A stretch of 64,000 nt of DNA from Shigella phage vB_SboM_Phaginator, in sequence record OL615012; one strand, written 5' to 3'. Below, one piece after another: positions 3,289 through 6,002 of this stretch. Numbering within the stretch: position 1 is the stretch's first letter; every line of letters begins with the position of its first letter. A program made the translations under genes and the position numbers. The notes beneath the pieces were generated by a model. That model saw only the letters and a program-made list of their open reading frames with translations. It searched no databases and was not told the origin of the DNA.

Positions 3289-3855
3289 TTATTTACCCAG
3301 TTTAGTTATTATAGCTTCGGCAGCAGCTTTTAGCTTAGATGCAGTGTTAATACGATTTTTAATTTCAGTATACGCATCGCCAAGAACATCAAGGCTATCT
3401 GAATAAACACTTACACTATTGCGTTCGCTATTTGAAATAGAACCTTTAGTTTTACGATCAAAATCGGTATACACGTCTTGAAGATCGCGTGCTGCCTTCT
3501 TTGCATCATCCAATGCATCAAGAGCTTTATTCAAAGCATTAACATATTTTTTAGTGTCAAACATATTCTTAGAAATTTTGACGGGTGCGCGTTCAGGAGT
3601 AGCTAAGGCAGATTTAGGAAGAACCTGTTTGCCAGATGCCAGTTTCTTAGAAATTTTAAAAAACGCTTTATTGAAATTATTTTCTTGACTCATCGTAAAA
3701 GAACTATTATCAATGTTATACATTTCAATAGCTTTAGCTTTCCACTTAAGAAAATCGCCACGGTCTTTTGGATCCAAGTGGAAGAATACTTTAGTAAGAT
3801 CTGCTTCAGATGGTAATTTTGCTGCTTCGGTTAAAAATTCGGCGTAGGTTTTCAT
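3289..3855 (-). CDS. ipIII: internal head protein, IPIII-like (capsid-targeting sequence MKTYAEFLTE)
   Basis: 188 aa; N-terminus matches T4 internal-protein capsid-targeting sequence with L-x-E protease site. Confidence 0.65.
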   Translation of the reverse strand: MKTYAEFLTEAAKLPSEADLTKVFFHLDPKDRGDFLKWKAKAIEMYNIDNSSFTMSQENNFNKAFFKISKKLASGKQVLPKSALATPERAPVKISKNMFDTKKYVNALNKALDALDDAKKAARDLQDVYTDFDRKTKGSISNSERNSVSVYSDSLDVLGDAYTEIKNRINTASKLKAAAEAIITKLGK

Positions 3856-3938: not shown

Positions 3939-3965
3939 AAAAAGCCCCAACCTTTCTGTCGGGGC
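3939..3965 (-). terminator. rho-independent terminator after internal protein gene
   Basis: Minus-strand RNA GCCCCGAC-AGAAAG-GUUGGGGC followed by U5. Confidence 0.6.
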
Positions 3966-3972
3966 TAAAATG

Positions 3973-4446
3973 TTATTTAATTTGCTTAGCAGACCAAATG
4001 CGGTCTTTGATAATTTTTTGGATGTCTTCAACATATTCAAGAGAGTGAACATGTGGGTTATCTTTGAAACTATAAGCACGAGCTAGCTTTTGGCCTTCGG
4101 TTTTGATTACTAAAAGCTCTTTAAGGATAGCTTCATATTTGGAGATAATTCCTTTAACAATATTTTTCTCTTGTGCGACTTTAGGATCTGCTTTAGGAGC
4201 AGGTTTACCTGAAGCCTTTGCAAAAGCAGCTCCAGTAGCAACTAAACTTTTCCAGGCCATACTAACTGCATTCCCTGTAAATCCTTCCGCTTTCATATCG
4301 CGAGCAAATTGGAATCGTGATTCATCGGAAGCATCTTTATAGGAATATTTACCCGCGGCAATGGCAGCTTTTGCAACAGCTTGAATTTCGGTGCTAGATG
4401 CTTCATTTAACACCGCTTCATTTAAAAATTGAGCATATGATTTCAT
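3973..4446 (-). CDS. internal head protein (capsid-targeting sequence MKSYAQFLNE), ipII position
   Basis: 157 aa; N-terminal MK(T/S)Y-x-F-x-E motif with L-N-E cleavage site; late promoter upstream, terminator downstream. Confidence 0.6.
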   Translation of the reverse strand: MKSYAQFLNEAVLNEASSTEIQAVAKAAIAAGKYSYKDASDESRFQFARDMKAEGFTGNAVSMAWKSLVATGAAFAKASGKPAPKADPKVAQEKNIVKGIISKYEAILKELLVIKTEGQKLARAYSFKDNPHVHSLEYVEDIQKIIKDRIWSAKQIK

Positions 4447-4482
4447 CTTATTTCCTGTTTTAATTCGTGGTTTTAATATACT

Positions 4483-4490
4483 TATTTATA
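4483..4490 (-). promoter_or_regulatory. T4 late promoter box TATAAATA
   Basis: Exact TATAAATA on minus strand about 37 bp upstream of the ATG at 4446. Confidence 0.5.
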
Positions 4491-4492
4491 CT

Positions 4493-4519
4493 AAAAAGCC
4501 CCAACCTTTCGGTCGGGGC
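4493..4519 (-). terminator. rho-independent terminator at end of tRNA/stable-RNA operon
   Basis: Near-identical copy of the hairpin at 3939-3965 (one mismatch), followed by U5 on minus strand. Confidence 0.6.
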
Positions 4520-4523
4520 TAAG

Positions 4524-4836
4524 CCTTGCGGCAACCTTGTCGGGGTTCCACCTGCTAAGGCAAGTGTTTGTACGAAACGCCGGGATTCGAACCCGGTTAT
4601 TAAGCAGTTGACGCTACTCAATATTTTTAAAAGGCCATATCTCGACCATATCCGAACGTTCCGTCAAAAACGCTACTCGGTTTACGGCAAAGATATTTCC
4701 TCGAATCGATAATTCGATGCGCCGTTTCTGCTGTGATGTAAGGGGGCATTAACCGATCGTAAAGATTTGTTAATGCCAGTCCTTACCCAGGGAACATCAG
4801 TCCGACGACTTGCCGGTAGCGACCCGGCTTCTTGTC
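4524..4836 (-). ncRNA. structured non-coding RNA region downstream of tRNA-Arg (possibly T4 RNA C / RNA D-like stable RNAs)
   Basis: About 310 nt between tRNA-Arg and terminator; no ORF; several hairpins and a T-arm-like motif CCGGGUUCGAAUCCCGG (4580-4596) but no full cloverleaf. Confidence 0.3.
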
Positions 4837-4912
4837 TGGTCGAGGCAGTAGGGATCGAACCTACGACCTAGGACTTAGAAGGTCCTTGCTCTTCCTTCTG
4901 AGCTATGCCTCG
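4837..4912 (-). tRNA. tRNA-Arg (anticodon UCU)
   Basis: Cloverleaf on reverse complement: D-arm GCUCAGAAGGAAGAGC, anticodon loop CUUCUAA, T-arm GGUUCGAUCC, encoded CCA. Confidence 0.85.
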
Positions 4913-5341: not shown

Positions 5342-5347
5342 AAATAT

Positions 5348-5956
5348 TTATATATTGTTAATTTGATTTAGAATTCTTTTTGCTTGAGTATGACTTACGC
5401 CAATATGCTTAGCATATTTAGACAATTCGCCACGTTTAGAAAAATCATATAATTTAGAAATTTCTATTCTTCTTTTTCTTTCATCCGCAGAAACTTTTGC
5501 TTCGTTTGCTTTTGCTATTTTACGTTTAGCTTCTTGAGAATGAGTTTTACCAGCAAAGCCATTCTTCATTAATCCATTTGAAGACCATCCTTTTAATTTT
5601 CCGTTAGAATGTGCCTTTTTAACACCCAATGAAATTAATTCGCGTTGCTGATCTGTCATAGGATAATTATTTATATGATCCCATCCACCTTCACCTCCAA
5701 GTTTTAAATTATACACATCTGGTCTATTTAAAAACTCTTCTGTGACAATATTTTTCTCGGCTTCAAGCATAGATTCTTTATCGTCAAAATACTCTAATAT
5801 TTCTTTAGAAAAATTTTCTATACCATATTTATCTTGGGCTCTTTTTAATAATTTACCAGAACCCATATATCCATCATCTAAATTTTCGGTAGAATGCACA
5901 CCAATATAAATTTTATTATTAATTTTATTTGTTATTTTATAAAGATAAAAATGCAT
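5348..5956 (-). CDS. segB: GIY-YIG homing endonuclease, SegB-like, embedded in tRNA operon
   Basis: GIY-YIG motifs (FYLYKI...KIYIGVHS, YMGSG); track ORF 5348..5998, preferred ATG at 5956 preceded by AGGGA. Confidence 0.8.
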   Translation of the reverse strand: MHFYLYKITNKINNKIYIGVHSTENLDDGYMGSGKLLKRAQDKYGIENFSKEILEYFDDKESMLEAEKNIVTEEFLNRPDVYNLKLGGEGGWDHINNYPMTDQQRELISLGVKKAHSNGKLKGWSSNGLMKNGFAGKTHSQEAKRKIAKANEAKVSADERKRRIEISKLYDFSKRGELSKYAKHIGVSHTQAKRILNQINNI

Positions 5957-6002
5957 ATCAGTCCCTAATAAAGAACTGAGCGTCTCACGACGAGTCATAA
6001 AT

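Follow-up and report, generated by a model that had tools for sequence, protein, structure and literature searches.

Orthologs of the T4 stable RNAs D and C at the end of a T4-like phage tRNA operon, with a predicted tRNA-shaped RNA C

Identity and gene order of the locus

The minus strand at positions 4524–4836 of the DNA analysed here (the window, 64,000 nucleotides of Shigella phage vB_SboM_Phaginator) lies at the 3' end of a tRNA operon, and the question is what this interval encodes. An initial annotation had described it as a single structured RNA of ~310 nt with a tRNA-like T arm, had named the T4 stable RNAs C and D as the first guess, and had listed a tRNA mimic among the other options. 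As shown by alignment to the T4 genome (NC_000866), the first guess was correct: the rnaD and rnaC annotated there could be aligned to the interval position by position, at the same location and with the same order, strand, terminator and lengths. Our reading is that the interval is the minus-strand tail of a T4-like tRNA operon and carries orthologs of T4 rnaD and rnaC, with a tRNA-shaped RNA C. We assign this reading a probability of about 0.9, a figure that refers to the whole best explanation, including the inferred processing and tRNA-mimic steps.

The gene order on the minus strand was rnaD, rnaC, a 3' trailer and then the terminator. In the T4 annotation, rnaC and rnaD are likewise located directly 3' of tRNA-Arg and are followed by the terminator. 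tRNA-Arg (UCU, with an encoded CCA; minus strand, 4837–4912) was called by ARAGORN, scored 68.1 bits with the Rfam tRNA model, and was the last tRNA of the operon, directly upstream of RNA D. Two RNAs rather than one were found in the interval. The rnaD homolog (species 2 RNA, ~120 nt) was placed at 4716–4835 by alignment to rnaD of NC_000866, and the rnaC homolog (species 1 RNA, 139 nt) at 4571–4709 by alignment to T4 rnaC and by a covariance model. Mapping of the T4 annotation left a 6-nt spacer, GAAUUA (4710–4715), between them, all on the minus strand; the ends of RNA C and RNA D in the window were taken over from that annotation. Only allelic differences separated the two genes from those of T4. 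rnaC was identical to T4 rnaC at 136 of 139 positions (97.8%) and scored 170.6 bits with covariance model R1, built from 30 homologs. rnaD was 84.3% identical to T4 and 96.7% identical to phage GiZh. There was no second copy of rnaC in the window, where the next-best matches to the RNA C model scored 15.6 and 14.2 bits.

Knowledge of both RNAs goes back to the 1970s, and with rnaC and rnaD annotated in the T4 reference genome, the locus itself is not a discovery. T4 RNAC was detected by northern blot as a stable transcript of ~140 nt, and RNAC and RNAD were classed as late RNAs (PMC9697503). No function is assigned to either RNA in the literature covered here (PMC3014915; PMC9697503; PMC12685909). 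Added here are a structural model of RNA C (a covarying acceptor stem, a T arm, two further arms and a loop-loop contact), its N-C-A tail, and a modular RNA D. The structural model makes a 50-year-old question about function easier to test, and the annotation of phage genomes would improve with it.

Folding of the interval was stronger than chance: the z-score was −3.97 over rnaC, −4.15 over rnaD and −7.57 when all 361 nt were folded together. The native energy was reached by none of the shuffles in all three runs (200 for rnaC, 200 for rnaD and 100 for the whole). The sequence motifs listed in the initial annotation were all recovered on the minus strand in their expected places.

Three elements were identified in the flanks, all on the minus strand. 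The 3' trailer from RNA C to the terminator (4521–4567) contains a predicted hairpin, CACUUGC-CUUA-GCAGGUG, and was conserved only in those T4-like phages whose operon ends with rnaC (Tequatrovirus and Gaprivervirus). A terminator scan found the intrinsic terminator AGCCCCGACC-GAAA-GGUUGGGGCU followed by UUUUU at 4492–4520 (hairpin 4497–4520), and the same terminator is annotated in the record of phage GiZh. Just upstream of tRNA-Ser, TATAAATA (5345–5352) matched the T4 late-promoter consensus and is a candidate late promoter of the distal tRNAs, RNA D and RNA C.

Structure of RNA D

The alignment, the folds and the pair counts showed that RNA D consists of a 5' hairpin followed by a long rod, with a rod base that is invariant and a tip that is swapped between phages. 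Hairpin 1 (GCCGGGUCGCUACCGGC; minus strand, 4812–4828) has a 5-bp stem and the 7-nt loop GUCGCUA, which was present in 20 of 21 sequences, JE01 having AUCGCUA. Its closing pair covaried (AU in 11, GC in 6 and GU in 4 of the 21 sequences). The rod (minus strand, 4719–4809) is closed by the basal helix GUCGUCG / CGGCG-CA, and the basal module GUCGUCGGACUGAUGUUCCCUG ... AUCACAGCAGAAACGGCGCA was nearly invariant in four genera. The basal helices show no variation and hence carry no information on pairing; covariation speaks neither for nor against them. For the distal hairpin, compensatory pairs were counted in helix 4 (four) and helix 5 (three).

The distal hairpin with its hypervariable tip is located at 4737–4788 on the minus strand. 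In the window, the 9-bp tip stem is formed by GGCAUUAAC at 4777–4769 and GUUAAUGCC at 4753–4745. At least four unrelated sequence types of tip were found among the phages, and per-sequence MFE folds gave a hairpin in 20 of 21 sequences. Differences between the window and T4 were concentrated in the tip, which is of the 'GiZh/RB' type and not of the T4 type, while the ~47-nt 5' core differed at three positions and the ~21-nt 3' core was identical.

Acceptor stem, T arm and 3' tail of RNA C

The diversity of homologs was obtained by stepwise BLAST in a phage collection. The comparison set for rnaC contained 34 homologs from nine Tevenvirinae genera, and a set of 30 sequences was used for RNAalifold, which returned 43 pairs with compensatory changes in 28 of them. 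In the RNA C model on 34 sequences, 93.9% of the cells were paired and 32 of 50 pairs showed compensatory changes. None of 500 shuffles reached these values, and slid controls were 35–50% paired.

The covariation showed a predicted tRNA-shaped RNA C, in which a 7-bp acceptor stem made from the molecule's own ends abuts a canonical 5-bp T stem. CGUUUCG (minus strand, 4573–4579), directly after the T arm as in a tRNA, pairs with the 5' end of RNA C, CGAUUCG (minus strand, 4702–4708), and thus gives a 7-bp acceptor stem beside the T arm. Among the 34 sequences, acceptor pair 2 was G-C in 32, A-U in one and G-U in one, and acceptor pair 3 was A-U in 15 and G-C in 19. Two U.U mismatches occupied the centre of the stem in 32 of 34 sequences; Tegunavirus has U-A and C-G there. 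The initial annotation had stated that there is no cloverleaf, which is wrong in topology, as RNA C is predicted to have an acceptor stem, a T arm and two more arms around a four-way junction. Covariation folding, which had been suggested there, gave a structured RNA C with a corrected fold.

Two pairings that had been put forward earlier were not retained. CGGAACG and CGUUUCG are both present (4663–4657 and 4579–4573, spanning 91 nt), but the pair counts rejected their pairing: with the internal CGGAACG (4657–4663) as acceptor partner there were no compensatory changes, and one position was broken in 13 of 30 sequences. The hairpin UCGAAU-UAUCG-AUUCGA (UCGAAUUAUCGAUUCGA) is likewise present, at 4717–4701, but it is not a conserved element. 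It straddles the junction of RNA D and RNA C and excludes the acceptor stem, with which it competes; T4 has CCAAAU and Karamvirus has none.

The canonical T arm reported earlier was confirmed at 4596–4580. In this arm, CCGGG-UUCGAAU-CCCGG (CCGGGUUCGAAUCCCGG; minus strand, 4580–4596), all stem cells were paired. One T-stem pair was GC in 16, UA in 16, AU in one and UG in one of the 34 sequences, and another was CG in 32 and UA in two. The T loop varied only at positions that are variable in tRNA (57, 59 and 60, and 54 in Tegunavirus), with the exception of the degenerate loop of MY742 (UGCAUGC).

The T arm and acceptor stem are followed by a conserved 3' tail, U-A-C-A-A (minus strand, 4568–4572; from the alignments), in the place of the discriminator and CCA. 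Across the rnaC homologs, the U, C and A were invariant, and the last A was invariant save in phage Ursula (G). The middle base was mostly A, with C in Klebsiella phages (U-CCA-A) and U in Tegunavirus. The T4 annotation places the start of RNA C 1 nt before the first acceptor pair and its mature end at 4571, at U-A and not at N-C-A.

Arms I and II of RNA C and a putative kissing loop

In the predicted fold, two arms supported by compensatory changes stand in place of the D and anticodon arms of a tRNA, Arm I being long and Arm II having a stem of 10 bp. Arm I (minus strand, 4632–4701) begins with an AGG/CCU helix and continues as a long irregular hairpin, and 12 of 14 and 5 of 5 of its pairs showed compensatory changes in the 34 sequences. 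Arm II (minus strand, 4598–4623), at the position of a tRNA anticodon arm, consists of the 10-bp stem and the loop CGUCAA (4608–4613); nine of the ten pairs showed compensatory changes, and the loop was nearly invariant. One A-U pair of Arm II in T4 is G-U in the window.

The apical loop of Arm I, UUGACG (minus strand, 4662–4667), is a candidate kissing partner of the Arm II loop. The two loops are complementary over 6 nt and were paired in 34 of 34 sequences, with two independent compensatory changes, UUGGCG/CGCCAA in Marfavirus and UUGAUG/CAUCAA in Tegunavirus; this covariation comes from two variant lineages and four sequences. As the loops are perfectly complementary and covary, they most likely kiss, which suggests a kissing loop between Arm I and Arm II. 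Kissing within one RNA C and kissing between molecules would both fit the covariation. The contact would most likely bury the RNA C loop at the anticodon-equivalent place. Taken with this putative loop-loop contact, the covariation shows RNA C as a molecule predicted to be tRNA-shaped, not as a broken tRNA.

Two further features of the arms were considered. Motif GAGUAGCGU, which had been noted as occurring twice, is indeed present at 4678–4670 and 4619–4611; it is not family-wide, as Arm I of the Kanagawa-, Marfa-, Moon- and Gelderlandvirus type lacks the first copy. An unpaired GG (4635–4636) just before the 3' strand of Arm I was invariant except in phage MY742. We do not claim that this GG mimics the docking of D-loop G18-G19 on the T loop, for which the sole hint is MY742 (GG changed to CG, T loop UGCAUGC).

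Comparison with tRNA models and known RNAs

ARAGORN with default settings found no tRNA and no tmRNA in the interval, and with relaxed thresholds it called a 95-nt tRNA-like fold. With the gathering scores of Rfam 15, a scan that had been proposed at the outset, only the nine tRNAs of the window passed; no family matched the rnaC or rnaD part, and both appear to be without an Rfam family. Searching 4400–4836 against Rfam with E up to 10 gave matches at chance level only. The only tRNA-related match, tRNA-Sec, scored 16.6 bits (E = 1.7), where the gathering score is 47, and the tmRNA models gave nothing beyond a 17-nt T-loop match (E = 8.4). The initial annotation had named acceptance by a standard tRNA model and the lack of a stable transcript as findings against it. 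Neither ARAGORN with default settings nor Rfam accepted the region, and the stable transcript has been seen for T4 RNAC by northern blot (PMC9697503).

One hallmark of tRNA, an acceptor stem running directly into a T arm with the T-loop motif, was found in RNA C, with covariation in both helices. RNA C shares with tRNA (RF00005) the 7-bp acceptor stem made by its ends and contiguous with a 5-bp T stem, the four-way junction and the placement in tRNA arrays. Its 7-nt T loop fits the tRNA pattern U54-U55-C56-R57-A58-N-N, and its tail is located where CCA would be. The D arm and 7-nt anticodon loop that tRNA models need for a score above threshold were not found in the interval. Unlike a tRNA, RNA C is 139 nt long and has no D arm or loop of tRNA size, no 7-nt anticodon loop and no linker nucleotides 8–9. 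It also differs in its A-C-A tail instead of C-C-A, in the two acceptor U.U mismatches, and in failing the tRNA models.

tmRNA (SsrA) resembles RNA C in that its ends build an acceptor stem and T arm around a large non-tRNA insert, and tmRNA is a known RNase P substrate. However, RNA C has no G3.U70 (A3-U70 in the window and G3-C70 in others), no encoded CCA, no tag reading frame and no tmRNA pseudoknots. mascRNA of MALAT1 and bacterial YrlA may serve as analogies, being non-decoding RNAs in which a tRNA-like module recruits RNase P and related enzymes and gives stability (e.g. PMC11693755). RNA C shares no sequence or model similarity and no Rfam match with them, and differs in its two extra arms and predicted loop-loop contact. 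E. coli is not known to have a Ro protein partner. Like RNA C, the pRNA of phi29 has two mutually complementary loops in one phage RNA that covary between relatives. The phi29 loop pairing is intermolecular and builds a ring. RNA C has no sequence or structural homology to pRNA, which would be an analogy for the intermolecular reading only, and T4 DNA packaging is not known to require an RNA.

Distribution of rnaC

The same region was found in ~700–800 T4-like phage records, several of which annotate rnaC or both rnaC and rnaD. At least nine Tevenvirinae genera carry rnaC, which is often just another gene of the tRNA array, and its 139–150-nt architecture scored 110–173 bits in all nine genera. 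In Karamvirus, Gelderlandvirus and the unclassified Citrobacter phage Ursula, rnaC was located directly after tRNA-Trp; in Tegunavirus, it was directly upstream of tRNA-Trp. tRNA-Gly followed within a few nt 3' of rnaC in Karamvirus and Gelderlandvirus, but was not directly downstream in Ursula. In the former two genera, rnaC was located in mid-array, without rnaD and without an adjacent terminator.

Proposed biogenesis and role

We infer as most likely that tRNA-processing enzymes produce RNA C and that it acts as a non-chargeable tRNA mimic; the tRNA-mimic option of the initial annotation fits RNA C as well. RNA D and RNA C would be co-transcribed with the tRNAs, and the transcript would end at the 4497–4520 terminator. 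The cut that matures the 3' end of tRNA-Arg would also create the 5' end of RNA D. RNase P would release RNA C by cutting at the base of its acceptor stem (~4709/4708). This cut would leave a short 3' tail on RNA D, to be trimmed by exonucleases, and the GAAUUA spacer would presumably be lost once cleavage has produced the 5' end of RNA C. The literature of the 1970s–80s dealt with RNase P, E or III as processing enzymes of the species 2–species 1 precursor.

Once released, RNA C would be stabilised by its tRNA-like top half. As a mimic or decoy, it may tie up a protein that recognises tRNAs by their acceptor/T-arm half, with no charging and no decoding. T4 phages deleted for the entire tRNA region can grow on laboratory strains, so any role of these RNAs would be conditional.

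A more speculative extension, which we consider doubtful, joins both RNAs in one counter-defence or takeover device, with RNA C as a decoy whose acceptor/T-arm half and N-C-A tail would bind a host enzyme or immune nuclease specific for tRNA top halves or 3' ends, and RNA D as a diversifying module. As a tentative part of the same proposal, kissing Arms I and II would hide the anticodon-equivalent loop and lock the body of RNA C. Equally conjectural is its third part, that the RNA D tip is under host-driven diversifying selection and that the device is present in most T4-like enterobacterial phages. When a T4-like phage was adapted to a semi-permissive host, 3 of 3 lines acquired a single rnaD SNP, and selection of an rnaD SNP was seen on ECOR34 (PMC12685909). 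Host-driven diversifying selection on RNA D would fit this convergent change.

Alternative explanations

The same convergent SNP would also fit trans-acting regulators that pair with host or phage mRNAs, especially through the RNA D tip or loop. So would the swapping of the tip between phages above an invariant base, and authors commonly use the word 'regulatory' for these RNAs (PMC9697503). We judge this explanation unlikely, as antisense matches to RNA D or RNA C within the 64-kb window did not exceed 12 nt, the longest being AT-rich and no better than chance, and most of the RNA D tip lies inside a stem. As of a 2010 review, T4 had no functionally characterised trans-acting regulatory sRNA (PMC3014915).

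The two RNAs might instead form a module that acts purely in cis at the operon's 3' end, as a platform for processing or a barrier that shields the tRNA precursors from exonucleases, and have no role once excised. Such a module would suit the compact, stable structure and the location of the rnaD-rnaC pair before the terminator in T4-like E. coli phages. It would not suit the Karamvirus and Gelderlandvirus rnaC, which lies between tRNA-Trp and tRNA-Gly with neither rnaD nor an adjacent terminator, and a barrier needs neither invariant loops nor a conserved N-C-A tail. The northern blot detection of T4 RNAC and the late class of both RNAs also argue against it (PMC9697503), and we rate it quite improbable.

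The presence of a canonical T arm and acceptor-like pairing inside tRNA arrays could also be read as the relic of a decaying tRNA pseudogene without function, its D and anticodon arms lost, and the relaxed ARAGORN fold and the weak tRNA-Sec match point the same way. However, the parts that are not tRNA-like were the best conserved: Arms I and II and their loops kept pairing by compensatory changes across nine genera, with the same architecture and the 110–173 bits throughout. Relics keep neither covarying helices nor invariant loops, and decay is very unlikely as an explanation of RNA C.

An authentic tRNA of unusual form, which would have a long variable arm or contain an intron and use CGGAACG/CGUUUCG as its acceptor, has been called elsewhere: in Enterobacter phage id4496, ARAGORN with default settings gives a 95-nt tRNA-Met on this pairing and GenBank annotates it likewise, while other records label the region 'tRNA-OTHER' or 'tRNA-Lys'. 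It is scarcely credible for the interval, where this internal helix has no compensatory pair and its one broken position recurs in 13 of 30 sequences, the CGGAACG strand is engaged in a hairpin with 5 of 5 pairs covarying, a 7-nt anticodon loop is missing, and neither the Rfam tRNA model nor ARAGORN with default settings calls this region.

Small protein-coding genes are an equally remote explanation, although ORFs of 40 aa (4627–4749, minus strand, ATG start), 53 aa (4460–4621, minus strand, TTG start) and 81 aa (4467–4712, plus strand, GTG start) exist and many records carry 'hypothetical protein (x2)', because the 40-aa ORF has its ATG within the hypervariable RNA D tip, where the other tip types lack it, its frame stops earlier in T4 (GGU UGA instead of GGU CGA), the 53- and 81-aa ORFs start without ATG, extend across the terminator or lie opposite RNA C on the other strand and do not exceed chance length, and the substitutions preserve pairs and are not codon-like. 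The earlier statement that the interval has no plausible ORF was upheld, as its small ORFs were not conserved.

Occurrence in metagenomes and annotation in databases

Pattern scans retrieved 14 loci in IMG/VR and 9 loci in metagenome contigs, which were mostly near-identical and included two false positives. In phage records, rnaC was frequently mis-annotated as tRNA or as hypothetical proteins.

Identification of the RNA D and RNA C genes

The window phage is T4-like, and its minus-strand tRNA cluster was read by ARAGORN and Rfam as Gln, Leu, Gly, an ORF, Ser, Thr, Met(CAU), Tyr, Asn and Arg. The region studied here is bounded by the end of tRNA-Arg (4837) and an intrinsic terminator (4520-4497 plus a U run), also on the minus strand. 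It matched about 700 Tequatrovirus-type records, the nearest being Escherichia phage Ec_O157kw (98.9% over 361 nt). In the T4 reference (NC_000866), two misc_RNAs are located immediately 3' of tRNA-Arg: rnaD ("small, stable RNA; species 2 RNA", 119 nt), then rnaC ("species 1 RNA", 139 nt). The window aligned with both free of rearrangement, and mapping of the T4 coordinates placed the rnaD homolog at 4716-4835 and the rnaC homolog at 4571-4709 on the minus strand, with a spacer of 6 nt as mapped from the T4 annotation. The rnaD homolog is 84.3% identical to T4 and the rnaC homolog 97.8%; against phage GiZh, whose record annotates rnaC and the terminator, the values are 96.7% and 98.6%, respectively. 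The interval corresponds to the T4 RNA D and RNA C genes with a probability of about 0.95 or higher.

The initial annotation had described a single RNA of about 310 nt; the T4 alignment resolves it into two genes, rnaD and rnaC, both already known. The motifs listed there were all found at their positions, and its leading interpretation (T4 RNAs C and D; tRNA mimic) was supported with a corrected fold. The comparison adds a covariation-tested structural model and the distribution across genera. Both genes are conserved, structured and non-coding, and the top half of RNA C is tRNA-like. Folding was far better than that of shuffled sequence, with z = -3.97 for the rnaC part, -4.15 for the rnaD part and -7.57 for the whole.

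ARAGORN with default settings called nothing over either RNA. The Rfam scan at gathering scores returned nine tRNAs only and matched neither RNA, a permissive scan gave only a sub-threshold tRNA-Sec match (16.6 bits, E = 1.7) on the T arm, and Rfam 15 contains no family for rnaC or rnaD. An Rfam scan had been proposed as a check on the region, and no tRNA model takes either RNA. The claim that the interval holds no plausible ORF also stood, its short ORFs lacking conservation. A 40-aa ORF was rejected as a gene: its start codon lies inside a segment replaced in other phages, and the T4 stop comes earlier.

Structure of RNA C

Rounds of BLAST with ever more divergent copies as queries, together with pattern scans, yielded 34 distinct rnaC homologs from Tequatro-, Mosig- (RB69), Gapriver-, Teguna-, Karam-, Kanagawa-, Marfa-, Moon- and Gelderlandvirus. 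For 30 of these, aligned with MAFFT, RNAalifold predicted 43 pairs, 28 with compensatory changes. The alignment of all 34 was fitted to the model, and the independent MAFFT alignment agrees with it. In this model-based alignment, the structure including a loop-loop helix had 93.9% of cells paired and compensatory changes in 32 of 50 pairs. None of 500 shuffles matched it on any of five measures, and slid controls were only 35-50% paired.

The covariation-tested model is a four-way junction. The acceptor stem pairs 4708-4702 (CGAUUCG) with 4579-4573 (CGUUUCG) on the minus strand and is supported by covariation: pair 3 is A-U in 15 and G-C in 19 of the 34 sequences, and Tegunavirus has U-A and C-G in place of the two central U.U mismatches. 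Arm I is long and irregular, opened by a 3-bp helix (AGG/CCU), and is followed by an A-rich, single-stranded linker and by Arm II, a 10-bp stem with covariation in nine pairs. A single unpaired A precedes the T arm (4596-4580, minus strand), and pair 3 of the T stem alternates between G-C and U-A among homologs. The acceptor 3' strand abuts the T arm without a gap, as in a tRNA, and T-loop variation is confined to tRNA-variable positions except in one degenerate copy. That copy, from Enterobacter phage MY742 (sequence L003, 1503-1651), has the T loop UGCAUGC versus UUCGAAU, and is the sole rnaC sequence to read CG at the conserved unpaired GG beside helix 2. These two changes may be coupled, a hint of D-loop-like docking of the GG on the T loop; alternatively, the copy may be decaying.

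The acceptor pairing originally proposed, CGGAACG/CGUUUCG, did not hold up: it showed no compensatory change and was broken at one position in 13 of 30 sequences. The internal CGGAACG belongs instead to a hairpin with covariation in all five pairs. In Enterobacter phage id4496 this internal pairing is perfect by chance, and ARAGORN builds on it a 95-nt "tRNA-Met" that GenBank annotates likewise; with relaxed thresholds ARAGORN calls the same fold in the window. The false tRNA-Met label is thus reproduced by ARAGORN through a non-conserved internal pairing. Homologs of rnaC are frequently mislabelled in GenBank (PQ824230, our sequence L009, 651-745; MK373779; MK327945; many more), as a 95-nt "tRNA-Met", "tRNA-OTHER", "tRNA-Lys" or one or two "hypothetical proteins".

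Arm I ends in an apical loop, UUGACG (4667-4662), that is exactly complementary to the Arm II loop, CGUCAA (4613-4608). Both loops are near-invariant, including where the underlying stems are wholly rewritten, and the six loop-loop pairs are intact in 34 of 34 sequences. The loops changed in step in two lineages, UUGGCG with CGCCAA in Klebsiella Marfavirus phages and UUGAUG with CAUCAA in Tegunavirus, which argues for a kissing interaction; the covariation would fit an intra- or an intermolecular contact. No description of this contact was found in the literature searched, older primary literature lying outside that search.

The tail 3' of the acceptor stem reads U-N-C-A-A. Its U, C and first A never vary, and only phage Ursula departs from the final A. 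Most sequences carry A at N; Tegunavirus has U there, and the Klebsiella phages have C and therefore encode U-CCA. In the T4 annotation, mature RNA C begins one nt 5' of the first acceptor pair and stops after U-A.

Structure of RNA D

Among 21 distinct homologs (Tequatro-, Mosig-, Dhaka- and Gaprivervirus), the 5' part, AAGAA-R-CCGGGUCGCUACCGG-Y-AAGUCGUCGGACUGAUGUUCCCUG, and the 3' part, AUCACAGC-W-GAAACGGCGCA, were almost invariant, and the central segment fell into at least four unrelated sequence types. All sequences but JE01 (20 of 21) share a fold, consisting of a 5-bp hairpin with a 7-nt loop (GUCGCUA) and a long rod that has the helix GUCGUCG/CGGCG-CA at its base and the variable segment as its tip. 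The closing pair of the hairpin covaries (A-U in 11, G-C in 6, G-U in 4). Overall, 92.2% of cells were paired, with seven compensatory pairs within the variable helices; the basal helices are invariant and so uninformative on pairing either way.

Distribution and genomic setting

The rnaC gene occurs without adjoining rnaD in Karam-, Teguna-, Kanagawa-, Marfa-, Moon- and Gelderlandvirus. Conversely, phages AnYang (L006) and TH40 (L007), of Dhakavirus and Gaprivervirus, have rnaD, still after tRNA-Arg, but lack rnaC; in both, sequence divergence begins directly past the RNA D 3' core. Since each is found alone, the two are independent, separable modules.

All rnaC homologs are located within the tRNA region and share the strand of the tRNAs. 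In Karamvirus and Gelderlandvirus, rnaC is located a few nt 3' of the tRNA-Trp CCA and a few nt 5' of tRNA-Gly; the unclassified Citrobacter phage Ursula has it after tRNA-Trp, with tRNA-Gly about 385 nt on, past an ORF; in Tegunavirus it is immediately before tRNA-Trp; and in E. coli T4-like phages it is the last in the operon. The gene therefore behaves as one more tRNA gene, and its placement is consistent with excision by tRNA-processing enzymes.

Expression, processing and function

T4 RNAC and RNAD are classed as late RNAs, and RNAC has been examined by northern blotting (PMC9697503). A candidate late promoter, an exact match to the T4 late-promoter consensus TATAAATA, lies just upstream of tRNA-Ser (5352-5345, minus strand). 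A second exact match (4483-4490, minus strand) lies directly past the operon terminator and precedes the gene at 3973-4446.

Maturation of the tRNA-Arg 3' end would generate the 5' end of RNA D. RNase P would cut at the base of the acceptor stem of RNA C, parting RNA C from RNA D, because RNase P recognises an acceptor/T-arm minihelix, and exonucleases would trim the RNA D 3' end as far as the basal helix. In classic studies, species 2 and species 1 RNA reportedly shared a joint precursor, with RNase P, RNase E and RNase III involved.

Given the identification, the leading proposal for RNA C, though a less than even one, is a non-chargeable tRNA mimic that would occupy a protein that reads the acceptor/T half of tRNA. 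No antisense target of RNA C or RNA D was found in the window. Reviews and recent papers describe the function of both RNAs as unknown (PMC3014915, PMC9697503, PMC12685909). In three lines of T4-like phage adapting to ECOR34, the sole common mutation was in rnaD (PMC12685909), a hint of host-dependent importance of the locus.

Neighbouring features

A GIY-YIG homing-endonuclease ORF of 216 aa (5348-5998, minus strand) lies between tRNA-Gly and tRNA-Ser, where T4 and GiZh have tRNA-Pro, which the window lacks. Over its N-terminal 117 aa it shares 83% identity with T4 SegB, its C-terminal (DNA-binding) half is unrelated, and Pfam matches were GIY-YIG, SegE_GIY-YIG and a borderline NUMOD3. The ORF seems to be a SegB relative in which the targeting domain has been swapped and which inserted at a different place in the tRNA array.

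Near-identical terminator hairpins at 4497-4520 and about 3941-3968 (minus strand; GCCCCGAC..GAAAGGUUGGGGC plus a U run) end two successive transcription units, and the half-site CCCCGACAAGGUUG recurs in the trailer 3' of RNA C. The neighbouring minus-strand ORFs of 157 aa (3973-4446) and 188 aa (3289-3855) gave no significant match in a Pfam search. Their N-termini, MKSYAQFLNEA and MKTYAEFLTEA, are near-identical, and the two look paralogous.
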